Below are positions 12,190 through 57,214 of a DNA stretch of 64,000 bases, one piece after another. The notes beneath the pieces are model-generated. The model had not been told where the DNA came from, did not search any database, and saw nothing but the letters and a program-made list of their open reading frames with translations. The position numbers and the translations under genes are program-made. Origin of the DNA: a virus (Duplodnaviria; Heunggongvirae; Uroviricota; Caudoviricetes); IMG/VR virus record IMGVR_UViG_3300028591_000092, positions 107,662 through 171,661 of that record; one strand, written 5' to 3'. Position 1 is the stretch's first letter. Every line of letters starts with the position of its first letter.

Positions 12190-12558
12190 TTATTTAAATC
12201 TTTCAGTTAATCCTTCTGCAATAACCGCCTTCACGGCCTGTTCATTTACCATCCAATAGCAATTACCCATAAAAGGTACTGGAGTAAGTTGAAGAATATT
12301 TACTAATACATCATCTCCAGCATGTACATATTGACAATCAGGAGCAACTTCAATTACTTTTGCACATTCAATAGTAAGTTTCTTTTCTTCTACTTGACCA
12401 CTATCTGAATTAATAAAATCAGAGTTTAAATCAAGACCGTCTTCAGTTTGTTTGTTAAGATACGGATTTTCATCATAAACATCTACAATAATATTTTTGT
12501 AGATCGGTTTTAATTCTAAAGCATTATTCATAATCATTAAACATTTAATATTGTACAA
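12190..12558 (-). CDS. groS: GroES-like co-chaperonin (longer than canonical); real start probably at the internal MIMNN
   Basis: LKPIYKNIIVDV and the C-terminal AVKAVIAEG resemble GroES; lies immediately downstream of the groEL-like gene. Confidence 0.5.
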   Translation of the reverse strand: MYNIKCLMIMNNALELKPIYKNIIVDVYDENPYLNKQTEDGLDLNSDFINSDSGQVEEKKLTIECAKVIEVAPDCQYVHAGDDVLVNILQLTPVPFMGNCYWMVNEQAVKAVIAEGLTERFK

Positions 12559-14027
12559 TTTGTTGTTAATATAGTTGATGCTACCGAAATAGCATTTTCA
12601 ATTGTTGCTTTTACAACTAGATAAGGATCTATAATTCCTTCTTCGTAATAATTTCCAAAAGGACAACTCCAAAAATCAAAAGTTTGAAAACAATCTTTTT
12701 CTGTATGGTCGAGGCCATACACAATAGTGTTGCACACAGGATCTTTACCAGTTATCATTTTATATGGAGCCCTTAAAACATTTTCTAGTTTCATTTCTAA
12801 TGGGAATTCTCCAATTACTTTTGACAACGCCACACCACCTCCTGGCAGCACTCCACCATCCATAGCACATTTAGTAGCCATAATGGCGTCTTCAAATCTA
12901 TCACATCTTTCCTTCATTTCTATTTTAGAAAAACCACCAACATAAATAGTTGCCATTCCAGATGTAAAGTTTGCTAAACGCTTCTGATGAAATACTTCTT
13001 CGATTTCTGATAAAATAGAGTCTTTAAGAACATCTCTTATAGATTGAATTCTTGCTTCTAATTTATCAGAAGGATGATACCCTATAAATGTGGTAGAATC
13101 TTTTGTAATAACTACTTTTTCGCATTCAGAAGATTCTCCAAATAAAATTCTCATATCTTCTAACATAGTTTCCCTCATAACACCAAAGTTAGGGCTTACT
13201 ACTTCACAAGACATAAGCTTTTTAGAACCATCAGGATTAAACATATTCTTTGCAAGGAATAATGTTAATCCAGATTCAAATTCAGGAGCAATGAGCAGAA
13301 GGCTTTTGTGTTCTCTATAAGCTTTTCCTGCTATAGCTTCCATTTCTTTTCCCTCATCTAGCTTTGTATCAGATATGTAAATAATACAATTCTCTAATAC
13401 ACATTCGTTTTTACTTGTGTTTATAAAGTAAGGAGATTCGTAACCATTATCTATCTTAAATCCTTCCGTATATTCCACCCTATCCTTCACGTCCTCAGAT
13501 TCTTGATATGTTACTAAACCATCTTTCCCTACTTTATAAAAAGCCTCAGCAATAAGACCTCCAATAGTTGGATCATTATTTGCTGCAAGTGTGGCTACTT
13601 TTTTAATATCCTCTAAAGAAGATATGTCTTTTTTATGTTGTTTTAAATACCCAATAATCTCTTCACCCGCTTTTTTTAAATATCTAGATACTTTAATAGG
13701 GTCTGGATTATCTTTATACTGATTTATAATTTCATTTGCTAATATTGCTACAGTTGTAGAACCATCACCAACAGTCTTAGCCTGTTTAATAGACGCTTCT
13801 TTAATAACATCAATACCCATTTGTATATAAGGATCTGGATCATTTACAGAATCCATTACTGTAGCACCGTCTTTTGTGGATTTTAATAGTCCACCTTTTC
13901 TTATCATAACACATGAAGCATTTGGTCCAAAAGTTGTTTCAACAGCTTTCGTTGCCAAATTAGCTCCCTCAATAATTTTAGATCTAGCTTCAGATCCAAA
14001 TTTTACATTATCATATTCCATAACCAT
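12537..14027 (-). CDS. groL: GroEL/Cpn60-like chaperonin
   Basis: VKFGSEARSKIIEGANLATKAVETTFGP and DGSTTVAILA match GroEL N-terminal and ATP-binding motifs. 496 aa. Confidence 0.9.
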   Translation of the reverse strand: MVMEYDNVKFGSEARSKIIEGANLATKAVETTFGPNASCVMIRKGGLLKSTKDGATVMDSVNDPDPYIQMGIDVIKEASIKQAKTVGDGSTTVAILANEIINQYKDNPDPIKVSRYLKKAGEEIIGYLKQHKKDISSLEDIKKVATLAANNDPTIGGLIAEAFYKVGKDGLVTYQESEDVKDRVEYTEGFKIDNGYESPYFINTSKNECVLENCIIYISDTKLDEGKEMEAIAGKAYREHKSLLLIAPEFESGLTLFLAKNMFNPDGSKKLMSCEVVSPNFGVMRETMLEDMRILFGESSECEKVVITKDSTTFIGYHPSDKLEARIQSIRDVLKDSILSEIEEVFHQKRLANFTSGMATIYVGGFSKIEMKERCDRFEDAIMATKCAMDGGVLPGGGVALSKVIGEFPLEMKLENVLRAPYKMITGKDPVCNTIVYGLDHTEKDCFQTFDFWSCPFGNYYEEGIIDPYLVVKATIENAISVASTILTTNCTILNV

Positions 14028-17409: not shown

Positions 17410-17426
17410 ATTAAAAATATATTATT

Positions 17427-17504
17427 GGTTGCCCTCCAAGGATTCCAACCTTGCTCCCCTGATTTAGAGTCAGGTATAATCAATTGCAAATATACGAGAG
17501 GGCA
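17427..17504 (-). tRNA. amber suppressor tRNA (anticodon CTA, reads UAG); amino-acid identity not determinable by eye
   Basis: Reverse complement TGCCCTCTCGTATATTTGCAATTGATTATACCTGACTCTAAATCAGGGGAGCAAGGTTGGAATCCTTGGAGGGCAACC. 7-bp acceptor TGCCCTC/GAGGGCA; anticodon stem CCTGA/TCAGG with loop CTCTAAA (U33, CUA, A37); T-arm CAAGG-TTGGAAT-CCTTG. Confidence 0.7.
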
Positions 17505-23777: not shown

Positions 23778-24299
23778 ATGACGTGCCGTTTTAATAATGT
23801 GGTATCGTGTATTAATTTGTCAACACAGATGGCTCTCGTGAGCCTGATTACTGATGGCTTTATGCTCACCACGAGGAAATATCATGGCTGGGTAATTGAG
23901 GGCCCAGATGGGCAGGTTGTTAAACTGTCAAAAGGTCTTAGCCTATGGGCAGACGTGTTTAGGACTTGGAAGCCAGAAGTGTTGAGAGATCGGATAAAGC
24001 TCCGTCTTCGCGGGGCCGAGACACAACTGTGGTTCAGGGGATCGGACCAAATTCCTACTGGCCTTCCAGAAGTGAAGGTAATTAAAAGTAGTCCAACCTG
24101 GCTACAGCATCTAGCAGGGGCAGACTGCTCACTGCCGGCCCCAAAAGAGGGGCAAAGAATAATCTTTGGCACCCTCATATATGAGAGGTGTCTTCTCGTC
24201 GGTGGGGACACCGACAGATGGAAACTTATCGAGTTTCCGTCAGAGACTTTAGCCCGCATATGTTGTGGGGAAGTTGATAACTCGACCGAGCGAGTATAA
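23778..24299 (+). CDS. hypothetical protein in GC-rich island (antisense ORFs 23882..24328 and 23453..23713 are probably artefacts)
   Basis: 173-aa ORF; ~50% GC against a ~30% background. Confidence 0.4.
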   Translation: MTCRFNNVVSCINLSTQMALVSLITDGFMLTTRKYHGWVIEGPDGQVVKLSKGLSLWADVFRTWKPEVLRDRIKLRLRGAETQLWFRGSDQIPTGLPEVKVIKSSPTWLQHLAGADCSLPAPKEGQRIIFGTLIYERCLLVGGDTDRWKLIEFPSETLARICCGEVDNSTERV

Positions 24300-24394
24300 A
24301 TAGACTTTAGGCTCGGTGCGTTGCCCAATCAGAAATGGTTGGGCAGGTAGTATTAACTAAAGTGCGTTAAGGAGCGCACGTTAAACAATAAAAA

Positions 24395-26915: not shown

Positions 26916-27052
26916 TCACACTAATAGCCTGGAGTGTAATACACTTCAGGTTATTTTTTTTGGCGACTCAACAAGGTTTCTTATTTTAATTACGGGAGTT
27001 GAAGAAAAAATTTATTCCCAGAATATTATTGTTTAATTTTAAAAATATTATT

Positions 27053-27718
27053 ATGAAACAGATCGTAAATGAATTGAGCAACGGCTATGCAGCCGACATC
27101 AAGCCGATGGAGTTAACCGAGAGTCAGGAACTTGCCTTGTCGCGTATGAGTCGACTTGTAGTAGGTGCAACGTATCTGTTCCCTGCTCAGATTTTCCACG
27201 CTAAGCCAACTGAGAACTCTGCAACGGGTTTCTCGAACCGCGCAGCATGTTATGAGATCGCCGATGATGGCTCGATTACTGGTATTAAGACGTTGAGCTA
27301 TTCTGCTCTTCGTGCTGCGTATCTTGGTCGCGTAACCGCTGATGCTGAGATTCCTGTAATTGAAGCAGAAGAGCGTGAAGGCCTGAAGCGTGCTAAAGCA
27401 GGACAGGCATCATTCGTTAGCAACATTAAGGGCGGTCAAGCTCCTATTCAGAAGCTTGAGAAGGACGGCAAGAAAACCGCAATCATTACTGCACCGTTCG
27501 CATTGAAGGTTACAGGACGTGGCGAGTTCTACACCACTATTCTGGAGCGTCGTGATGACGGCCGCTATGATATGCAGGTTGATGCAAACGGAAACCTTGC
27601 TATTACTAGCCGTAACGACTACGAGTTCGACTATGTCGTTCCTACCAAAGAGATGCTTGAGAGCATTAACCCTGTAAAGGATATGCCGGAGCTGAGCTCA
27701 AAGGGCTTCATCCTGTAA
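27053..27718 (+). CDS. hypothetical protein (ORF 26999..27718; likely start at MKQIVNEL)
   Basis: ORF track. Confidence 0.5.
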   Translation: MKQIVNELSNGYAADIKPMELTESQELALSRMSRLVVGATYLFPAQIFHAKPTENSATGFSNRAACYEIADDGSITGIKTLSYSALRAAYLGRVTADAEIPVIEAEEREGLKRAKAGQASFVSNIKGGQAPIQKLEKDGKKTAIITAPFALKVTGRGEFYTTILERRDDGRYDMQVDANGNLAITSRNDYEFDYVVPTKEMLESINPVKDMPELSSKGFIL

Positions 27719-27950
27719 TGTTCTCCTGTCTCAAAGGTTTCATAACTGAGGATAGAGTATTCGAAAGCGAGAGCCAAAGCTTTCGAGTACTCATCCCTCA
27801 AAGACTTAACTTTAAAGATTGGAATAGAGAAATCTATGCTAACTTTAGAGTAATAGGAAAGAATTATATAATGGACAACTATGTTCTAGCATAATTTTTT
27901 TCTATTCACTCAACAAGAAACAAAACTAGGCAATTTATTATTGCCTTTTT

Positions 27951-28130
27951 GGTCCTATCATCTAGCGGGATCACCCCAATAGCTCTAGTACTAGCCCGTA
28001 AGAGGTTTGCTCTAAGCCGTTATAGCTTTATGGTGCAAAGTATAAGCCGGAAGAAGGAAACAGTGAGGGAGTGGTCAAAGGATAAATACTTCTCAAGTAT
28101 GAAACAGAGGTTCGAATCCTCTTGGGACTA
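27951..28130 (+). tRNA. tRNA-Glu(CTC)-like gene with a ~110-nt insertion in the D-loop
   Basis: Acceptor GGTCCTA/TGGGACT (G1-U72, U6-G67), D-stem ATCT/GGAT, anticodon arm AATAC-TTCTCAA-GTATG, T-arm AGAGG-TTCGAAT-CCTCT, discriminator A, no CCA. Upstream terminator AGGCAATTTATTATTGCCTTTTT. Confidence 0.5.
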
Positions 28131-28241
28131 CAAAGCATGCTTGTGAGCATGTGGTGTTATTCATAATGTGTATATTTTTTCCCCAAGAAAGTGCTATATC
28201 TTTCTTTAAGAGAGTGCGTTGTAAAATGTGCTCTCTTTTTT

Positions 28242-28442
28242 GGTCTTATCGTCTAGCGGTGATAATTGCGGCGAATCTGATACTACCAAGGCATGAGATA
28301 TTTCTATTATAGAATATAGGTTGCCAGAAGTAGGGATACTGGGTCCCGAAGACGCGTTCGGTGTGCACCTGGAACACTCACAGTTATCTTAGGACAATTA
28401 CTTCTCAAGTAAAAAACGTTGGTTCGAATCCAGCTGAGACTA
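28242..28442 (+). tRNA. tRNA-Glu(CTC)-like gene with a ~140-nt D-loop insertion (paralog of 27951..28130)
   Basis: GGTCTTA/TGAGACT acceptor with compensatory C5-T/G68-A change relative to the paralog; D-stem GTCT/GGAC; loop TTCTCAA; T-arm GTTGG-TTCGAAT-CCAGC. Confidence 0.5.
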
Positions 28443-28550
28443 CAAAGGAAGCGCTCGCTTCGTTCATGATAATAGATTAAGTTGGTTTATACAATTCCTT
28501 AATAAGGCCGCTTGGGAAAGTAGCCTTATTTTTTTCTAAAGAAACTCATT

Positions 28551-28763
28551 ATGGAAATAATATTTGAACTAGTGCTAGTATTGCTGCTAGGCTCGGCAAT
28601 ATACACAATCTTCTTCCTTAATATAGAAGATAAACAACAATGCCCACGTTGCGGAAAACTTACAAAGTATCAAGGAGCATATGTGGAAAAAGAATCTGGT
28701 AAAATAGTTTACCAATATAAATGTGACTGTGGATATATGTGGAAATCTTATAAAAGATTGTAA
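28551..28763 (+). CDS. small membrane protein with zinc-ribbon-like CPRCG...CDCG
   Basis: ORF track. Confidence 0.45.
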   Translation: MEIIFELVLVLLLGSAIYTIFFLNIEDKQQCPRCGKLTKYQGAYVEKESGKIVYQYKCDCGYMWKSYKRL

Positions 28764-29012
28764 GTGAAGTGAGGGAGAAAACACTCTTCTCATCTCTAAC
28801 TCCCTCATAATCAATATATTACAGCACATTCCTCCTTTCTTTCCCTTCAAATTTTGCGCGAGTTATTTTAAATATTGATCTTAAATGTAGAATTTGAAGA
28901 TGTTTTTTAATTAAACCTAAACTTTAACTTTCATTTTATCTGTATACATACAGGATGATATTAAAAAACATATCCTATATTATCTATATTGTTTAATTTA
29001 ATTTTTTTTTGA

Positions 29013-29333
29013 ATGGTAAAAGTACTTACTCGTGATCAGATGGAGCATATGAAGCGTGAGATTGCTACTCATTATGCTGCTAATCTGACGTATGGATTTG
29101 AGCAGATGGCTCTACGTTTTGGAAAGACTCCTCAGCAAATTAGGGGTGTTTATTATCGTCATTTAAATAATGGCAAGGGTGCTACATTATTTCATTTACC
29201 CAACTCAAATCCTAATGTAAAGAACAAACGAATCGAACGTGAACAAGCAGTTCCTACTATGCGTACTCGCGCACAGGGAGAGGCTACTGGCATGATTGGT
29301 TCTGCTTTACATCGTCTACGTACACGTCATTAA
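29013..29333 (+). CDS. hypothetical basic protein
   Basis: ORF track. Confidence 0.5.
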   Translation: MVKVLTRDQMEHMKREIATHYAANLTYGFEQMALRFGKTPQQIRGVYYRHLNNGKGATLFHLPNSNPNVKNKRIEREQAVPTMRTRAQGEATGMIGSALHRLRTRH

Positions 29334-29347
29334 TAAAAGAACAGGTG

Positions 29348-29370
29348 TAGTCAAGTAAAGAGATACTTCG
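29348..29370 (+). promoter_or_regulatory. copy a of the conserved 23-nt motif TAGTCA..ACTTCG (abuts the 5' end of tRNA-Gln)
   Basis: tagtcaagtaaagagatacttcg. Confidence 0.4.
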
Positions 29371-29442
29371 ATTTTTTAGCTCATTAGGTAGAGCATAAAG
29401 TTTTGGTCTTTAAGGTAGTTGGTTCAATTCCAACAGAAATCA
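29370..29442 (+). tRNA. tRNA-Gln(TTG)
   Basis: Acceptor GATTTTT/AGAAATC, D-arm GCTC-ATTAGGTA-GAGC, anticodon arm TAAAG-TTTTGGT-CTTTA, T-arm GTTGG-TTCAATT-CCAAC. Confidence 0.7.
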
Positions 29443-29682
29443 ACATTTGTAATACTCTTTACGTTATTCTCACCTTATGGGTATCTCACATTGGTTTGTG
29501 TGATACCTTCTATTTTTTTAAATTGTTACAATTATGGAAGTTAAAGTAGTAGTCAGTCAGAAGGAGGCTGATGTTCAGGAGCTTAATAAGCTTTATGAAC
29601 AAATTCGTATTATTGCCAAAAGATATGGATTTAATCCTAGTAAAATCAACTCATCTTTGGATGAATTAAAAATGGCAATAGT

Positions 29683-30479: not shown

Positions 30480-31860
30480 ACCTAACGTTTGGAAGTTCGG
30501 ACATAAAACTTCAAAGAGGCGACGGTACAGACTTAGCTATTTGTTAAGTAGTCTCATAGACTGGTGATGAACTATTCCAGTCACTCTTTTCTCAATAACC
30601 GAAAGTGGGGGTCCTAAACATAAGTAGCGCTAAAATTATGAACAGGAGTATATAATGAAATACACGGAGAAAAGATTTTATTTTACTGCATAATAGTTCC
30701 GTAAGGACAAATCAGAGAGATACTACGTGCAGGTAATGGCTCTGATTTTTTTAATAGTGTTATTACTCCACTTAATAGAGTAATTAAAGTCCAATTCGGT
30801 CATAAGGACCACGAGAGATGATTGTCTAGGCTCTCACTTTTGACGGATGGAAAGACATCTAAGTTTAGTATTTTGAAAACAAAAGTACTCAGAATAATAC
30901 TCTGTGAAAGTATTTTTTTAAAATCAGAACGAATTGCAATAAGTTCTGATGGAGAGGTTGCAAACTCTCATGGATATGTAGTATAAAGGAGTACTCTGCT
31001 GGGCTAGTGGTTATAAATGCTGTACAAGCTACCAGACTACTCGGCGGCGGCGTAGGTTAGAATCCTACCATATCTTCTAAAATCCATCAAATGACACGAT
31101 GGTTGACTCCTATCAATAGAGTAGGTACAGGCTGTTATTAGAAGCCACACGTCCTCCCGTGAGTGTGAGGTGTCCCAAAGTTATTCTTTTACTGGCACAA
31201 AAGTTTTAGTCAAGAACAAAAAAAGACAATTTTGAGCATAGTCGTCTGATCAGGACTATGCCTTCTATCTAGAGTGATTCTCTAAGGTTGATTACCAATC
31301 ATCTGACACTTTAAAAGTAAGCCAATAGGGGAAACTTTGTCAAAGTTTTAATAGTTTACTGACGTAAGATCTCATCAATCGAAAACTATTTGTTAGTAAA
31401 TATGGTAGCTATTGAGTCGCTCTTAATAGTAGAGGTTCGATTCCTCTTTTACTTCTAAATCCAATTCTCACAATTGGTAGCAGGCTGTAATAGAAGCCAA
31501 GTTTATCACTATAATGCATAAAGTGACATCAAAGAGTTAGATGTAAAATAGGACTGGTCAACTCAAAAAAGATCTTGGGCATAATTGCTTGGTTGTAATT
31601 ATGCTTTCTAATTAGAAAATTTCTTAAAACTATGTACATAAGTTTAACATATCTATTGGGTTGGTTGTTGACTTAGTTTTAAGAGATACTTAAAAATCCA
31701 TTCTATGATACCATGTTTTCGTAGAATAAGTAAGTGACATGGCACAATGCAGTTTGGTGGATTCTGCTTATTTTAGATAATATAATATTGCCATATACAA
31801 CTTTGATAACCAATCAATTTTATATCTTCCCCTCCTAGAATCCGCTAGGAGGGGATAACC
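30480..31860 (+). ncRNA. ~1.4-kb ORF-free structured region with duplicated ~80-100-nt units (31055-31155 and 31425-31505), each holding a T-arm-like hairpin and a GGTA(G)CAGGCTGT.ATAGAAGCCA motif; group-I-like AAGTCCAATTC at 30787
   Basis: No ORF of 60 aa or more on either strand. GTAGGTTAGAATCCTAC and GAGGTTCGATTCCTC hairpins. AAGTCCAATTC is shared with the tRNA-Leu intron at 43985. Confidence 0.35.
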
Positions 31861-46007: not shown

Positions 46008-46119
46008 GGTCCTTTCGTCTAATAAGAGTATGAGACCTTCGCAGTTCGATCTGGATCATACTGGAATAGGACATATAATCGCTCGGTTATAGATGCAAGT
46101 TCGATTCTTGCAGGGACTA
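46008..46119 (+). ncRNA. tRNA-Glu-derived tRNA-like RNA (candidate Y-RNA-like). Acceptor-like GGTCCTT/AGGGACT, ~48-nt D-loop insertion, stem TATAA/TTATA closing a conserved 8-nt loop TCGCTCGG, T-arm GCAAG-TTCGATT-CTTGC.
   Basis: See finding. No CCA; discriminator A. Confidence 0.5.
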
Positions 46120-46634: not shown

Positions 46635-46723
46635 GGTCCTTTCGTCTAATAAAGTATTAGTTATACTGGTTAGGACACAAGATCGCTCGGTTTTGGATGA
46701 ATGTTCGAATCATTCAGGGACTA
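46635..46723 (+). ncRNA. tRNA-Glu-derived tRNA-like RNA, paralog of 46008..46119. D-loop hairpin insert AGTAT..ATACT; stem CAAGA/TTTTG closing loop TCGCTCGG; T-arm GAATG-TTCGAAT-CATTC.
   Basis: See finding. The ORF 46633..46893 N-terminus overlaps and is probably spurious there. Confidence 0.5.
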
Positions 46724-47581: not shown

Positions 47582-49273
47582 ATGACAAAAATTAATTCAA
47601 GAAATGCACAATTAAAAAGTGCTTTAGGTGCTATGGCTCCTAAGGAAAGAGTTAAAGAAGTTTTAAATATTCCAAAAGAAGATACTAAGAACCGTCAAGG
47701 TTTTGCAGCATATTCTTTGCCGGAAGAACTTCGTTTAATTAGCATGCTTAACACTCTTAAGGTACAGGAACAATTTTATCGTACCGAAAATAAGCAAATG
47801 CAAGAACTTAGAGATCTTATTGAACGTATAGGATTTAAAGATCCTTATTTTGTAGCTCAGTGTATTAAATACTCTCGATGCATGGGCGAAGGCATGCGTG
47901 ATATTAATAATATTGCTGCAGCTTTATTAGCTCCTTTTGCCTCTGGCCAAGAATGGGCAAAACGTTTCTATAGTCTGTATAATAAGAAAACACAGCTTGG
48001 TGGTTGCATTTTCCGTGCAGATGATATGAATGCAATTAAAACAGTATTTTCTGCTTTAAATACTCCTAAGCTTTCAGCCGCAATGAAAGTTGGTTTTCGT
48101 AATACTTTGGAAGCTCTTGATGCATATCAGTTAGCTAAGTATGCAAAGACAACTCGTGATATTGCAAATCTTGTTCATCCTAATCCTGAGAAATCTAAAG
48201 CAGTTATAACTTTAACTGGTAAAGATCGAGATAAATTTCTTGATGGAAAAGGTTATGATGAAAGTGCTTCTGAAATTACAGTAAAAGTGCTTGATGCTAT
48301 TATGTCCGGTATTACTGTTTCAGCAGATACTTGGGAAGTAGCAAATTCAGAAGCAGGTCAAGAAGTTGCTAAAGCTGTTAAAGCTGGCAAAATTACTGCA
48401 GAAGAAGGTAAAAAGATTTTAGCACAAGCTAAAGATCAGAATTTCCAAGATCTTCTTAAAGAAGGAAAACTTGGTGTTCTTGCTGCTTTGCGTAATATTC
48501 GTCAGATTTTACAATATTCAGATCAGAAAACTGTAGATTTGTTATGTGCTCTTCTTTCCAATCCTGAAAAGATTCGTCAAGGAAAGATCATGCCTTATCA
48601 AATTGATATTGCATATGAAGTATTAAATACTGAATTTCGTTCTTACGATAAGTATACACAAGTTCGTGATGCTTTAGTTCGTGGTTATGAAACTTCTGTC
48701 CCTAATTTAGCTGAAGCTCTTCCTGGAAAGACTTTAGTTATTTTAGATTGTTCTGGTTCAATGTCTGCATTTCTTTATGATTCTGCAAATAAACGTCGTT
48801 TGTATTCTAGTTGTCTTGATAAAGCCTCTTTGATTGCTGCTACTATTGCTAAAGCAACTGGGGCTGATGTTATTCGTTTTGGATCAAGAGCAGAATGGAC
48901 AAGCTACAACAAGAATCATACTGTATTTGATATTGCACAACAATTTGCTGCATCTCGTATGGGATGCACTTATTTGAATTATGCTTGGGATCTTGCTCGT
49001 GTAAGTCATAAAGATTATGATCGAGTAATTATTCTCTCGGATAATGAGTGCAACTCAATGCAAAGAGTGTCAACTTCTTATAAGCAGTATGTGCACGACG
49101 TATGCTCACCATATGTTTATTGTTGTGATATGGCAGCTTATGGAACTACTCCACTTGCAGGCGATAAAGTTAATTATTATTGTGGCTATGGCTATAAGTT
49201 ATTTGACGATATTGCAAGTAACGAGTTTAACCCAATGCAACACATTGAGAAAATAAGAAAGGTAGTCATTTGA
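47582..49273 (+). CDS. Ro60/Rsr-like protein: alpha-helical TROVE-like N-terminal ~370 aa plus C-terminal vWA domain with MIDAS motif
   Basis: 563 aa. VILDCSGSMS (DxSGS MIDAS). Size and architecture match Ro60/Rsr. Surrounded by tRNA-like RNA genes. Confidence 0.6.
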   Translation: MTKINSRNAQLKSALGAMAPKERVKEVLNIPKEDTKNRQGFAAYSLPEELRLISMLNTLKVQEQFYRTENKQMQELRDLIERIGFKDPYFVAQCIKYSRCMGEGMRDINNIAAALLAPFASGQEWAKRFYSLYNKKTQLGGCIFRADDMNAIKTVFSALNTPKLSAAMKVGFRNTLEALDAYQLAKYAKTTRDIANLVHPNPEKSKAVITLTGKDRDKFLDGKGYDESASEITVKVLDAIMSGITVSADTWEVANSEAGQEVAKAVKAGKITAEEGKKILAQAKDQNFQDLLKEGKLGVLAALRNIRQILQYSDQKTVDLLCALLSNPEKIRQGKIMPYQIDIAYEVLNTEFRSYDKYTQVRDALVRGYETSVPNLAEALPGKTLVILDCSGSMSAFLYDSANKRRLYSSCLDKASLIAATIAKATGADVIRFGSRAEWTSYNKNHTVFDIAQQFAASRMGCTYLNYAWDLARVSHKDYDRVIILSDNECNSMQRVSTSYKQYVHDVCSPYVYCCDMAAYGTTPLAGDKVNYYCGYGYKLFDDIASNEFNPMQHIEKIRKVVI

Positions 49274-49301
49274 TTACCTTTCTTATAACTTATATTGACA
49301 T

Positions 49302-49324
49302 TAGTCAGTGATTCACTTACTTCG
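49302..49324 (+). promoter_or_regulatory. copy b of the 23-nt motif
   Basis: tagtcagtgattcacttacttcg. Confidence 0.4.
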
Positions 49325-49326
49325 AA

Positions 49327-49440
49327 TTTGGTCTGCTAAACCGGCGGTCACTGGTTCGAGTCCAGTATATATTATAATATATTAGCTCAGTTGGTAGAGC
49401 GCCTTTTGTTTTATGTGAATTACGTTTTCTATGTCAATTA
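49327..49440 (+). ncRNA. unresolved tRNA-like module. A 3' half (anticodon-arm-like GGTCTGCTAAACC, T-arm ACTGG-TTCGAGT-CCAGT, ATATATT-A) is followed within 2 nt by a 5' half (AATATAT-TA-GCTC-AGTTGGTA-GAGC); the two acceptor strands are complementary to each other.
   Basis: Seen in sequence. Could be a permuted/circularising tRNA-like RNA or two split genes. Confidence 0.3.
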
Positions 49441-49558: not shown

Positions 49559-49690
49559 GGCGAGCTAGTTAAATAAAAAAGTTTCACTCTAGTCTATATT
49601 CTTCGTAAGATAGTCATGATTTAGAGTTACTTCGGTTATAACAATTTCCTCCTAAGAAATCATATCCAGGTTCGAGTCCTGGGCTCGCCA
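49559..49690 (+). tRNA. tRNA-Arg(CCT)-like with a ~65-nt D-loop insertion that contains motif copy c
   Basis: Acceptor GGCGAGC/GCTCGCC (7/7), D-stem GTTA/TAAC, anticodon arm ATTTC-CTCCTAA-GAAAT, T-arm CCAGG-TTCGAGT-CCTGG. Confidence 0.45.
49611..49635 (+). promoter_or_regulatory. copy c of the 23-nt motif (inside the tRNA-Arg D-loop insert)
   Basis: tagtcatgatttagagttacttcgg. Confidence 0.4.
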
Positions 49691-50451: not shown

Positions 50452-50536
50452 GGCGCTATCGACTAGTGGTTTAGGTCGCTGCTCTTTCAAGGCAGTTGGA
50501 TGTAAATCCTCACGAGTTCGAATCTCGTTGGCGCTA
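50452..50536 (+). tRNA. tRNA-Glu(TTC) with a 16-nt hairpin (GGAT-GTAA-ATCC) inserted in the variable region
   Basis: Acceptor GGCGCTA/TGGCGCT (G1-U72), D-arm GACT-AGTGGTTTA-GGTC, anticodon arm CTGCT-CTTTCAA-GGCAG, T-arm ACGAG-TTCGAAT-CTCGT. Confidence 0.6.
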
Positions 50537-50549
50537 CAATATACCATAA

Positions 50550-50572
50550 TAGTCATGTAAATACTTACTTCG
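50550..50572 (+). promoter_or_regulatory. copy f of the 23-nt motif, followed by T-arm-like hairpin GCCAG-TTCGAGT-CTGGT
   Basis: tagtcatgtaaatacttacttcg. Confidence 0.4.
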
Positions 50573-50692
50573 TTTATGCCAGTTCGAGTCTGGTTTTTCG
50601 TACATTACGAAAGTGGCGGAAAGGTAAACGCGCAAATCTGAAACATTTGTTAATAACATCATATCAGTATTTATAATTTTCTTTATGGTTTT

Positions 50693-50826
50693 GGTCCTCT
50701 CGTCTAGTGGGATAACTAGGATATTCAGCAAGTAAGAGATGTAATGATAAGCTTCATCTTATCTATGTTATCAAAGGACATTAAATCGCTCGGTTTAAGA
50801 CAGAAGTTCGAATCTTCTGGGGACTA
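50693..50826 (+). ncRNA. tRNA-Glu-derived tRNA-like RNA, third member of the TCGCTCGG-loop family. ~70-nt D-loop insertion; stem TTAAA/TTTAA; T-arm AGAAG-TTCGAAT-CTTCT.
   Basis: See finding. Confidence 0.5.
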
Positions 50827-56874: not shown

Positions 56875-56899
56875 AGGGCTTATTTTATTTGGGCCGTAG

Positions 56900-57214
56900 A
56901 GGAATTGATTCACATGTTAGCTATTATAAGACAGCAGAGTGATGACTTAATCATCAAAACAAAAATAAATGGCAGATCTTATTCTACCTATAGAATGGCT
57001 GCGTAAGCCATTTCTCTGGTTGTTGAGTAACCAAGGAACATAATACTCATAGTTGGTTTCTTTGTTTAGTAAAACAAAGTGGTGGAGGTAGCGAGTCGAA
57101 TAGACCAGTTACCCCGTGATAAGCAACACGTAAAAAAGCAAGCTGTATAGTTCTTATAAAAAGCGGTGGAGAAGACTGGAGTTCGAATCTCCAACGGTCC
57201 ACAATTAATTGAAA
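56900..57214 (+). ncRNA. possible ~315-nt tRNA-like or intron-containing RNA. 5' GGGCCGT pairs with 3' ACGGTCC flanking T-arm TGGAG-TTCGAAT-CTCCA.
   Basis: Seen in sequence; internal structure unresolved. Confidence 0.3.

Follow-up and report, generated by a model that had tools for sequence, protein, structure and literature searches.

Two tRNA-Glu(CUC)-like phage genes with a large RNA domain in the D-loop

Can a tRNA gene carry more than 100 nucleotides inside its D-loop and, if it does, is the extra RNA removed or kept? Two neighbouring genes, here called E1 and E2, raise this question in the window, the whole 64-kb stretch of phage DNA that was analysed. An earlier note on this DNA had described them as tRNA-Glu(CUC)-like genes with D-loop insertions of 110-140 nt, and the inserts delimited here measure 108 and 128 nt. 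The features of the locus are the following:

27928..27950, + strand: terminator-like hairpin (7-bp stem, then TTTT as T-run), abutting the 5′ end of E1 (GGTCC)
27951..28130, + strand: E1, tRNA-Glu(CUC)-like gene of 180 nt, whose 3′ end is the discriminator A73
27951..27968, + strand: 5′ part of E1 (acceptor 5′ strand, U8 C9, D-stem 5′ strand, A14 G15 C16 G18 G19)
27969..28076, + strand: insert of E1, 108 nt, with predicted closing helix GAUCACCCC/GGG-A-GUGGUC and a predicted branched interior
28077..28130, + strand: 3′ part of E1 (AAA at positions 20-21, D-stem 3′ strand GGAU, anticodon arm, variable region AAAC, T arm, acceptor 3′ strand, A73)
28208..28241, + strand: terminator-like hairpin (13 pairs) and T-run, abutting the 5′ end of E2
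28242..28442, + strand: E2, tRNA-Glu(CUC)-like gene of 201 nt
28261..28388, + strand: insert of E2, 128 nt, with predicted 8-bp closing helix GAUAAUUG/CAGUUAUC and two predicted internal arms

The tRNA-Glu body and its D-loop insert

In E1, the acceptor strands GGTCCTA and TGGGACT pair at 7/7 positions, including G1.U72, and are followed by a discriminator A. U8 and C9 lead into the D stem ATCT/GGAT, whose loop consists of AGCGG, the 108-nt insert and AAA, and the body is completed by the anticodon arm AATAC-TTCTCAA-GTATG, the variable region AAAC and the T arm AGAGG-TTCGAAT-CCTCT. E2 is built from the acceptor GGTCTTA/TGAGACT (7/7 paired), the D stem GTCT/GGAC, a D-loop of AGCGG(T), the 128-nt insert and TTA, the anticodon arm ATTAC-TTCTCAA-GTAAA, the variable region AAAC and the T arm GTTGG-TTCGAAT-CCAGC. 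The D-stems, TTCTCAA loops and standard T-arms that the earlier note had read are all present in the sequence, as is the compensatory acceptor change that it had pointed out between the copies, C5-G68 in E1 and U5-A68 in E2. Both anticodon loops are the 7-nt UUCUCAA, and 4/5 pairs of the anticodon stem form in both genes, the mismatch falling at 27-43 (as it does in 6/10 members of the family described below). Where the two genes leave the canonical range is in the D-loop, with 116 nt in E1 and 137 nt in E2 against 7-11 nt, and consequently in overall size, 180 and 201 nt against ~70-95 nt. The insert-bearing D-loops have a G+C content of 47% (E1) and 45% (E2), that of the window being 32%.

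Ordinary phage tRNA-Glu genes (in loci L002 and L003, and at 4590-4662 of L033) share with E1 and E2 the acceptor GGUCCUA...UGGGACU-A with its G1.U72, the D stem GUCU/GGAC with U13.G22, the AGCGG start of the D-loop, the 4-base variable region, the T loop and a CUC or UUC anticodon loop. The 18-nt 5′ half of E1 is that of the genes in L002 and L003 except at position 10 (A, not G). The ordinary genes differ from E1 and E2 in having a D-loop of 8 nt, and it is E1 and E2 that tRNA finders miss. ARAGORN called neither gene and Rfam detected neither at its gathering threshold, where the tRNA model (RF00005) aligns the 3′ parts only and gives them 24.4 and 27.4 bits, short of the 29 required. In silico removal of the inserts leaves an 8-9-nt D-loop in a perfect tRNA-Glu(CUC), and ARAGORN then reports both genes as tRNA-Glu(ctc), as it does for 7/8 other CUC-type members of the family once their inserts are excised.

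In shuffled versions of the window, the expected number of matches to the whole-architecture pattern is 0.00, and a chance origin of the E1 and E2 architecture is excluded. Mis-assembly is ruled out as well, since the region of both genes is identical in two independent assemblies (ENA ERZ27256846 and Logan SRR8436538). Two further readings of the region were tried and rejected. In the first, which follows the Rfam alignment, the 3′ parts would be short tRNAs with local 5′ strands; these strands give 5/7 acceptor pairs and no D arm, whereas the distal strand pairs at 7/7 positions and supplies the D stem, so the short-tRNA reading fails. The second takes a 65-aa ORF running through E1 (27949-28146) as a gene; E2 has no counterpart of it, and an ORF of such length is not unusual.

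For E1, the unconstrained minimum free energy (MFE) fold is a cloverleaf with a helix-closed insert, and for E2 the cloverleaf-plus-insert fold has -46.1 kcal/mol against -49.8 for the MFE. These energies are no better than those of shuffles (z-scores of +0.17 for E1 and -0.30 for E2, and likewise for E3, a further family member), so that alone the single-sequence fold energies of E1-E3 carry no weight. The structures given above for the E1 and E2 inserts are predictions from such single-sequence folds.

The gene family and its conserved core

Genes of the E1/E2 design number 19 distinct examples in the window and in loci L029, L030, L031, L033 and L034, which are contigs of related TAG-recoded phages of ~165 kb, and one further member lies in a JGI metagenome contig (L036). 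Beyond E1 and E2, there are at least 3 members in the window and 15 in related contigs (14 in related phage loci and 1 from the metagenome), and D-loops range from 25 to 154 nt across the family. The other members in the window that enter the argument are:

46008..46119, + strand: E4, 112 nt, with a 38-nt hairpin directly 5′ of G18G19 and an 8-nt anticodon loop UCGCUCGG
46635..46723, + strand: E5, 89 nt, with a 15-nt hairpin 5′ of G18G19 and the loop UCGCUCGG
50693..50826, + strand: E3, 134 nt, with a 62-nt insert after G18G19 and an 8-nt anticodon loop UCGCUCGG

The insertion site of E3 is that of E1 and E2, and its closing helix, GAUAAC/GUUAUC, is similar. Synteny identifies positional orthologues of E1 and E2 in L030 and L031, whose inserts are unrelated to the E1 and E2 inserts. 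In the relatives, an insert-free tRNA-Glu(CUC) also stands beside the expanded copies (L033 4590-4662, L030 658-729), so the expanded copies are not needed merely to supply that tRNA. ARAGORN finds no insert-free tRNA-Glu(CUC) within the 64-kb window. GAG is the minor Glu codon, accounting for 26% of Glu codons.

Searches further afield returned little. The interval 27000-29500 had no blastn match among the INPHARED phages, and scans of IMG/VR by sequence patterns, architecture patterns and neighbouring proteins gave no family member, their matches being either tRNA-Glu genes of the ordinary kind or Ro60-encoding phages that are more distant and free of such elements. Scans of JGI metagenomes yielded one true member only, that of L036, and matches in GTDB genomes were set aside as false positives, namely partial tRNA-Glu duplications beside complete tRNAs. 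Of the proteins flanking E1 and E2, the 221-aa protein upstream has homologues in contigs without the elements, and the 70-aa protein downstream has no relatives in the collection searched. No description of such phage or bacterial tRNA genes was found in the searchable literature; the only bacterial case met there is one D-loop that houses a group II intron (PMC13011429), and with that exception the view of the earlier note that D-loop insertions are not known in bacterial or phage tRNAs is supported. We conclude that E1 and E2 are paralogues within a lineage-specific, phage tRNA-Glu(CUC)-derived family that carries an RNA domain in the D-loop, and that this family is small and apparently undescribed.

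Purifying selection acts on the tRNA core. In the ten CUC-type bodies, 97% of the cells are paired and compensatory changes occur in 14/22 body pairs; 0/500 shuffles score as high in covariation, and the signal disappears when the pairing partners are slid. The earlier note had made its reading depend on acceptor and T-arm pairing in a covariance fold, and both helices prove to be 100% paired across the 10 members, each with 4 compensatory pairs, while the sequence GG-TTCGAAT-CC is found in both E1 and E2. The D stem, too, is 100% paired across the insert, and the tertiary 15-48 pair shows a perfect switch, being G-C in 5 sequences and A-U in 5. Covariation of the long-range pairs (acceptor, D-stem and 15-48) spans the insert and is seen in 10-19 genes. 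U8, A14, A21, the GTTCRA T-loop, U11-A24, C12-G23 and U13.G22 are invariant in the aligned bodies. G18G19, whose loop positions were trimmed from that alignment, can be read directly in the D-loops of both E1 and E2. In the anticodon arm, C31-G39 is invariant while the stem covaries, with U33 and A37 present. Covariation of the body together with an invariant core is the pattern expected from selection on a folded L-shape. Also kept are U11-A24, U13.G22, the 4-base variable region without position 47 and the CUC anticodon loop, which we take to be the identity features for GluRS; with this set retained, the E1 and E2 RNAs are probably still recognised as tRNA-Glu.

The inserts behave otherwise. 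Their site is always 0-4 nt after G19 or directly before G18, and every one is closed by its own helix; the two D-loop stretches flanking GG are variable and solvent-exposed in the tRNA structure. In sequence, the inserts are hypervariable even between positional orthologues. Non-homology of the E1 and E2 inserts, which the earlier note had stated, is confirmed by a local alignment score of 14 against a shuffled mean of 14.6. The E1 insert has no homologue among the 19 inserts compared and the E2 insert no significant one; neither insert sequence is repeated elsewhere or matches Rfam. A motif common to both (GCCRGAAGWAGG) was considered and is not significant, and short strings in the inserts that resemble a hammerhead, CUGAUGA, a tetraloop receptor or GNCGAA are unsupported by Rfam and should be regarded as chance. 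The smallest inserts of the family are hairpins of about 15-17 nt. One insert group, made up of 4 orthologues, keeps a hairpin of two helices in which 5-6 pairs show compensatory changes and the loop, GGYCUGAUG..GAGUCG, is conserved; this structured insert speaks for selection on the insert as an RNA element.

Retention or removal of the insert

What, then, becomes of the insert? The earlier note had offered either a new intron or insertion class or a tRNA-like RNA; the tRNA-like alternative is the better supported, short of demonstration, and the intron is not favoured. The explanation that we prefer, and to which we give about an even chance, is that E1 and E2 specify a tRNA-shaped non-coding RNA that keeps its insert as an extra arm, either a tRNA-Glu mimic or a specialised tRNA with a cargo arm. 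The gene would be transcribed and the ends of the transcript trimmed as in any tRNA, by RNase P, 3′ trimming and CCA addition, steps to which the intact 7-bp acceptor stem and T arm are suited. The RNA would then take the normal L-shape, with the insert staying in the mature molecule as an extra arm that projects from the elbow. This arm would provide a second, fast-evolving binding surface, and the RNA would have its role within the RNA toolkit of the phage rather than in the bulk decoding of GAG. We infer that the insert is retained, that the RNA is charged with glutamate and that the arm has a partner and a function; conserved flanks around a hypervariable, helix-closed insert would equally fit an intron. 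Retention is, however, the simplest reading of the 15-17-nt hairpin inserts, which are too small to self-splice. A domain of 108-128 nt at the elbow would probably clash with the ribosome, RNase P and other elbow contacts, and such a clash sits oddly with the strictly kept anticodon loop.

Several known RNAs help to place a retained arm. In class II tRNAs and tRNA-Sec an extra helix is retained, the natural arms lying in the variable region and measuring ~20 nt or shorter, while in engineered tRNA scaffolds the tRNA body aids the processing and stability of an attached RNA that replaces the anticodon arm. In the E1/E2 family, by contrast, the arm would sit in the D-loop at the elbow and reach up to ~150 nt. 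tmRNA offers the parallel of a tRNA-like frame (acceptor and T arm) that permanently carries a large domain, as E1 and E2 would with a retained arm. It differs in that its insert replaces the anticodon arm and that it has G3.U70 and a tag frame, whereas in E1 and E2 the anticodon arm is preserved, the pair is U3-A70 and a tag frame is absent; Rfam finds no tmRNA (RF00023) match on either gene. A further step would be to see the tRNA-Glu chassis as a natural display scaffold with an interchangeable, retained elbow RNA domain, the result being a bifunctional RNA that possibly feeds a Ro60/Y-RNA system; we put this forward tentatively.

The strongest competitor, itself unlikely, is that the inserts are intervening sequences of a new kind, which an endonuclease of the phage or host together with an RNA ligase, or a small ribozyme of an unrecognised type, would excise to release a 72-73-nt tRNA-Glu(CUC) that decodes GAG. 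Excision in silico does restore a canonical D-loop (AGCGG plus AAA) and the ARAGORN calls of tRNA-Glu(ctc); the exons are conserved and the anticodon loop invariant beside hypervariable inserts, and the insert-free versions with the same acceptor stem resemble intron-less alleles. The phage also has at least one self-cleaving ribozyme (Pistol) and a Ro60/TROVE protein, whose family has been linked to the repair and ligation of RNA (PMC7824862). Against this, no ribozyme or intron family of Rfam matches 27850-28550 at E<=10, and the inserts are unlike group I and group II tRNA introns, which exceed 200 nt and have a ribozyme core: with 108 and 128 nt, the E1 and E2 inserts fall far short of that size, those of the family as a whole span 15-150 nt, the site is not the anticodon loop, and a ribozyme core is absent. 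The closer analogy is with archaeal, nucleomorph and algal tRNA genes, whose non-canonical D-loop introns are cut by the splicing endonuclease at a bulge-helix-bulge (PMC3241643, PMC3695527). In these genes, as in E1 and E2, the D-loop is interrupted and precise removal restores a canonical tRNA. In E1 and E2, however, the junction is a 5x3 internal loop (AGCGG by AAA/UUA) between the D stem and the closing helix of the insert; there is no 3-4-3 bulge-helix-bulge, and inspection shows no way for the four bases that precede GGAU, or for the 3′ exon bases ahead of GGAC, to pair with the beginning of the insert. The inserts are confined to the two GG-flanking positions, the phage context looks bacterial (TAG recoding, a Pistol ribozyme, tmRNA), and there is no splicing endonuclease among the ORFs tested. 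An endonuclease or RNA ligase match was found in 0/30 window ORFs scanned against Pfam, which weighs little as most of these ORFs match nothing. The presence of two insertion sites, with no boundary sequence common to the family, argues against excision in the same way, as do the members with 15-17-nt hairpins, too small to self-splice, and the conserved distal loop of one insert group, which suggests that the insert itself is functional.

A retained arm might instead belong to working elongator tRNAs, charged with Glu and decoding GAG, in which it would serve, for instance, as a nuclease shield or a mark for a phage factor. We consider this quite unlikely, although the canonical 7-nt loop UUCUCAA with U33 and A37, the invariant C31-G39 in a covarying stem, and a D arm that keeps all tRNA-Glu features are what it calls for. 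It also gains from the lack of an insert-free tRNA-Glu(CUC) in the 64-kb window and from the tolerance of extra arms in other tRNAs; the tRNA-Glu(UUC) of this phage (50452-50537) has a long variable arm. Several copies per genome are nonetheless hard to square with a minor codon (26% of Glu codons), and the relatives already have a normal tRNA-Glu(CUC). A branched domain of 108-128 nt would stand by G19, where the ribosome and RNase P contact the elbow, and the 8-nt loop UCGCUCGG of the sister genes is unlikely to decode normally.

The Ro60/TROVE setting and the meaning of the family

The genomic context of the family in the window includes two further features:

47582..49273, + strand: gene for a divergent Ro60/TROVE-like protein (Pfam vWA_Ro60 and TROVE, both weak; NCBIfam Rsr, weak)
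49338..49411, + strand: core of a YrlA-like Y RNA, made up of T arm, hairpin and D arm, immediately 3′ of the TROVE gene

The protein matches the TROVE-domain chains 9l5y and 9kop of the PDB with an E value of 4.7e-8 and has 2177 relatives at E<=1e-30. The YrlA-like RNA scores 41.3 bits (E of 1e-6 to 8e-8) with Rfam RF02553, below the gathering score of 69. Beside the TROVE gene lies a second tRNA-like family, with a conserved, covarying module in its D region and differing anticodons; the motif UAGUCA-N9-UUACUUCG in this D region is the 5′ leader motif of the YrlA-like RNA. Overall, the tRNA and RNA-maintenance toolkit of this phage is unusually rich, comprising Ro60/TROVE, the YrlA-like RNA, tmRNA and many odd tRNA-like genes, and a Pistol self-cleaving ribozyme is present elsewhere in the phage.

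Could E1 and E2 be Y-RNA-like partners of the Ro60/TROVE protein, with the body or the arm tethering Ro60 to tRNA-handling enzymes, as proposed for YrlA? We regard this as improbable for the two genes as such. The phage does have a TROVE gene followed by a YrlA-like RNA, and the neighbouring tRNA-like family has the YrlA-like leader motif in its D region. E3-E5, and in five related loci their orthologues, are found no more than ~1.5 kb from the TROVE gene on the same strand, well inside the ~4 kb from a Ro60 gene, on the same strand, that characterises the placement of Y RNAs. E1 and E2 are also on that strand but ~19 kb upstream, outside this distance; they have no match to the YrlA model RF02553 and lack the leader motif and Y-RNA motifs, and in related phages whose Ro60 is 54-57% identical, the vicinity of the gene is free of such elements. 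The acceptor helix (G.U, G-C, U-A, C-G ...) resembles the Ro-binding helix GGUCCGA (PMC4201824), a likeness that may be coincidence since the acceptor is the same as in ordinary phage tRNA-Glu. YrlA and other Y RNAs (PMC4201824; RF02553) do share with E1 and E2 the character of a tRNA-mimicking non-coding RNA with authentic D and T arms in a genome carrying Ro60. In YrlA, however, it is the Ro-binding stem that is made from the 5′ and 3′ ends, and what corresponds to the 'acceptor' is a closed hairpin. E1 and E2 have a normal acceptor stem at their ends, possess a full anticodon arm and carry the extra module in the D-loop.

That the genes are decaying tRNA pseudogenes, produced by small selfish insertions or by partial tRNA duplications as at integration sites, is barely credible and largely refuted by covariation: the inserts are hypervariable with ends like inverted repeats, and database scans gave many unrelated duplicated tRNA-Glu 5′ halves upstream of complete tRNAs, but here no complete local tRNA exists at the 3′ parts (24-27 bits in Rfam, poor 5′ strands), 10-19 genes show covariation of the acceptor, D-stem and 15-48 pairs that the insert separates, insertions occur at no more than two positions beside GG, one insert group itself covaries, and the inserts are not repeated elsewhere.

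The architecture of tRNA is among the most constrained in biology, and the family would extend the range of what the tRNA fold tolerates. Since ARAGORN and Rfam/Infernal miss genes of the E1/E2 type, inventories of phage tRNAs, and the codon-usage arguments built on them, are blind to this class. Should the arm be removed, this would imply an RNA splicing pathway hitherto unknown in a bacterial virus, and the inserts would be the first D-loop intervening sequences in such a virus, excised by a route new to bacteria. If, as we favour, the arm is retained, the family would provide a natural precedent for tRNA-scaffolded functional RNAs, and phage Ro60/TROVE proteins, of whose RNA partners little beyond YrlA is known, may have in it a partner of a new type.

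The architecture of the tRNA-Glu-like genes

The two tRNA-Glu(CUC)-like genes, E1 and E2, share one plan, in which a tRNA body is interrupted within the D-loop by an insert that constitutes an extra RNA domain. Both were read from 27600-28800, and their coordinates were rechecked.

27951-28130 (+): E1, tRNA-Glu-like, 180 nt
27969-28076 (+): insert of E1, 108 nt, between G19 and the last AAA of the D-loop
28242-28442 (+): E2, tRNA-Glu-like, 201 nt
28261-28388 (+): insert of E2, 128 nt

The body of E1 consists of an acceptor stem (GGTCCTA/TGGGACT, with a G1.U72 pair and discriminator A73), U8 C9, a D stem (ATCT/GGAT) whose loop starts with AGCGG and ends with AAA, an anticodon arm (AATAC-TTCTCAA-GTATG), a variable region (AAAC) and a T arm (AGAGG-TTCGAAT-CCTCT), while E2 has acceptor GGTCTTA/TGAGACT and D stem GTCT/GGAC. 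Structurally, the bodies depart from the tRNA family only in size and in the length of the D-loop, and the elements fall below the family's detection threshold. Both are absent from the ARAGORN calls, which include 20 other tRNAs in the window, and both are missed by Rfam at the gathering threshold; with a relaxed threshold, the Rfam tRNA model scores them at 24.4 and 27.4 bits (threshold 29), in alignments that cover the 3′ two-thirds only and use makeshift 5′ strands. The genes are real, as the earlier note had read them: the whole-architecture pattern has an expectation of 0.00 in the window, and the identical E1/E2 sequence is present in two independent public assemblies. Their 18-nt 5′ half (GGTCYTATCRTCTAGCGG, expectation 0.01 in the window) also matches that of ordinary tRNA-Glu genes in phages.

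Three further genes of this design came from a script scan of the window, which required a T arm, then a 3′ acceptor strand, and within the preceding 420 nt a 7-mer perfectly complementary to that strand.

50693-50826 (+): E3, 62-nt insert after G18G19, closing helix GAUAAC/GUUAUC, closely similar to the E1 and E2 helices
46008-46119 (+): E4, 38-nt insert immediately before G18G19
46635-46723 (+): E5, 15-nt hairpin immediately before G18G19

In E3-E5, an invariant 8-nt anticodon loop (UCGCUCGG, CUC central) replaces UUCUCAA, and the anticodon stems of genes of this type covary; ARAGORN reads a 4-base anticodon, gctc, in one relative. With inserts removed, E1-E5 and two normal phage tRNA-Glu genes pair in 100% of cells, with 8 of 17 pairs compensatory. 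In the ten CUC-type members, pairing holds in 97% of cells, with compensatory changes at 14 of 22 pairs; the covariation score is reached by 0/500 shuffles, and pairing falls to 34-46% once the partners are slid by 1-3 columns. The acceptor and T-arm pairing described in the earlier note is borne out; the acceptor and D stems, both spanning the insert, covary. The CUC-type alignment is invariant at U8, A14, A21, G53-T54-T55-C56-R57-A58, U11-A24, C12-G23 and U13.G22. At the tertiary 15-48 pair, five sequences have G-C and the other five A-U, without exception. The CUC anticodon, U33, C31 and G39 do not vary, the remaining anticodon stem covaries, and the variable region has four bases in every aligned member. 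The D-arm features U11-A24, C12-G23 and U13.G22, together with the four-base variable region, would be the features by which glutamyl-tRNA synthetase identifies tRNA-Glu.

Distribution of the family and variability of the inserts

Relatives of the protein encoded by the Ro60/TROVE gene (47582-49273) provided the productive route to further members. The window and the scanned contigs of its closest relatives (67-81% identity, 10-kb flanks) contain 19 distinct members, and a second metagenome scan added one copy (L036). No member was found by sequence-pattern or neighbouring-protein searches of IMG/VR, in the first JGI metagenome scan, or near the Ro60 gene of distant phages at 54-57% Ro60 identity, and the GTDB genome scan returned partial tRNA duplications only. 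By synteny, L031:1811-1945, L030:375-517 and L030:806-927 on related phage contigs are positional orthologues of E1/E2, flanked by homologues of the 25450-26055 gene and, in L031, by one of the 28551-28763 gene as well; the sequences of their inserts show no relationship to the E1/E2 inserts.

Two insertion sites are used, one 0-4 nt beyond G19 and the other immediately 5′ of G18, and both are solvent-facing stretches of the D-loop whose length varies in normal tRNAs. Removal leaves a canonical D-loop of 8-10 nt in most members, E1 and E2 included. Every insert is closed by its own helix. The unconstrained minimum-energy fold of E1 is exactly a cloverleaf plus a closed, branched insert, and the equivalent fold of E2 lies 3.7 kcal/mol above its minimum; single-sequence fold energies are no better than those of shuffles. 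Insert length ranges from 15 to about 150 nt and sequence is hypervariable, with the E1 and E2 inserts matching neither each other, as the earlier note had said, nor that of any other member. Orthologous bodies may even carry inserts at different sites (E4 vs L030:9363; E3 vs L033:9512). Some inserts nonetheless look constrained. Four orthologues located upstream of the TROVE gene carry as their insert a two-helix hairpin in which 5-6 pairs show compensatory changes and the loop, GGYCUGAUG..GAGUCG, is conserved; the L036 copy fits this hairpin as a fifth sequence. L030:375 and L031:1811 have a closing helix in common, where three compensatory changes occur.

Retained arm, intron or decoding tRNA

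The earlier note had offered a new intron or insertion class, or tRNA-like regulatory RNAs. We favour a tRNA-like RNA, with the extra arm retained in it, at roughly even confidence, over removal of the insert by splicing, which appears unlikely. Splicing would account for conserved exons around a variable insert and for the perfect tRNA left by exact removal (after in silico deletion of the helix-closed insert, ARAGORN calls tRNA-Glu(ctc) for nine of the ten CUC-type members, E1 and E2 among them), and relatives do possess insert-free tRNA-Glu(CUC) with the same acceptor stem (L033 4590-4662, L030 658-729). Retention is favoured because of the insert size and lack of a ribozyme signature, because no bulge-helix-bulge can be drawn at the junctions, where a 5x3 internal loop borders directly on the D stem, and because boundary sequence is not conserved, members with only 15-17-nt hairpins exist, insertion keeps strictly to the two sites beside GG at which the D-loop structure is permissive, and the distal loop is conserved in one insert group; the absence of a splicing enzyme among 30 window ORFs scanned is weak evidence in the same direction. 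E1/E2 gave no match at E<=10 to Rfam ribozymes, introns, riboswitches or Y RNAs. They were rejected as BHB-intron tRNAs (no bulge-helix-bulge at the junctions), as group I or II intron hosts (no Rfam match, insert size), as the bacterial Y RNA YrlA (no Rfam Y RNA match) and as tmRNA, whose defining feature they lack. In line with the novelty that the earlier note had claimed, the literature searched yielded a single case of a D-loop insertion in a phage or bacterial tRNA, a group II intron.

It is doubtful that decoding is the chief role of the arm-bearing RNA, since GAG accounts for only 26% of Glu codons, each genome has several copies, with a normal copy also present in relatives, and the branched 108-128-nt domain beside G19 would sit at the elbow, which the ribosome and RNase P touch.

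The Ro60/TROVE neighbourhood and other RNAs of the phage

The phage is AT-rich (32% G+C in the window; source contigs of 164-172 kb). Recoding of TAG is seen over the ~24 kb at the start of the window (1-24000), where it lifts long-ORF coverage from 0.37-0.55 to about 0.95 in parts; together with a suppressor tRNA, this indicates a TAG-reassigned phage.

12537-14027 (-): Cpn60/GroEL-type chaperonin gene (Pfam Cpn60_TCP1, E 1e-38)
17426-17504 (-): suppressor tRNA, anticodon CUA (ARAGORN label Pyl)
24280-24352 (+): Pistol self-cleaving ribozyme over its full length, 68.2 bits against a gathering score of 34.5, 3.6 kb upstream of E1
30972-31076 (+), L029 3630-3730: tRNA-like gene with extended or interrupted anticodon region, 101-105 nt, Rfam tRNA 36-39 bits, conserved in one relative
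47582-49273 (+): divergent Ro60/TROVE protein gene (Pfam, PDB and NCBIfam matches)
49296-49411 (+): YrlA-like Y RNA core with leader, directly after the TROVE gene
49559-49690 (+), six relatives: second tRNA-like family, 128-133 nt (L027 11998-12130 and 12136-12267; L029 11862-11994; also L031, L033, L034)
50452-50537 (+), L029 13211-13296: tRNA-Glu(UUC) with long class-II-like variable arm, unusual for tRNA-Glu, 85-86 nt, conserved in relatives
50540-50660 (+), L027 12560-12650, L031 13040-13130, L033 13480-13570: recurrent short RNA-like units, TAATAGTCA-N9-TTACTTCG then a T-arm-like hairpin
56891-57204 (+): tmRNA-like gene, acceptor GGGCCGU/ACGGUCC with a G3.U70 pair
L022 7713-7869 (+), a more distant Ro60-encoding phage: tRNA-Leu-like gene, 157 nt, whose anticodon-region insert itself has a T-arm-like hairpin

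The tmRNA-like gene is missed by ARAGORN and at the Rfam gathering threshold, and aligns end to end with the Rfam tmRNA model (27.4 bits, E 2.6e-9), and in relatives tmRNAs can be recognised (L033 1894-2248, L034 15021-15381). The recurrent short units are candidates for additional Y-like RNAs, or else for a common promoter plus leader.

The Ro60/TROVE protein has weak Pfam vWA_Ro60 and TROVE matches, matches to PDB TROVE chains (E 4.7e-8) and a weak NCBIfam Rsr match, with 2177 relatives at E<=1e-30 in public data, mostly on similar phage contigs. In bacteria and phages, tRNA-like Y RNAs adjoin Ro60 genes (Chen et al., PMC4201824). Here, the YrlA-like core scores 41.3 bits against RF02553 (E about 1e-7, below the gathering score), E4 and E5 precede the TROVE gene by 0.9-1.6 kb, E3 follows it by 1.4 kb, and their orthologues hold the same relative positions in five related loci. 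A link of E1/E2 themselves to Ro60 is hypothetical and improbable: they lie 19 kb from the TROVE gene, the UAGUCA-N9-UUACUUCGG motif is absent from them, and ordinary phage tRNA-Glu genes have the identical acceptor stem.

The D region of the second tRNA-like family holds a conserved ~60-nt module that comprises this motif and a covarying helix. These RNAs, always just downstream of the TROVE gene and YrlA-like RNA, have a covarying GC-rich acceptor stem and anticodon loops that differ between copies (CCU, GUA, GAU, UUG-like). The YrlA-like RNA has the motif too, as its 5′ leader, at the position of the GNCGAA motif proposed to bind Rsr in YrlA (PMC4201824); this leader contains UAGUCAGUGAUUCACUUACUUCGAA. 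Because the second family's D region and the YrlA-like leader have it in common, it is plausible that D-region modules in this clade would serve as protein-binding handles. E1/E2 and their relatives are tRNAs or tRNA-like RNAs with a D-loop domain, so far confined to one clade of recoded gut-type phages.
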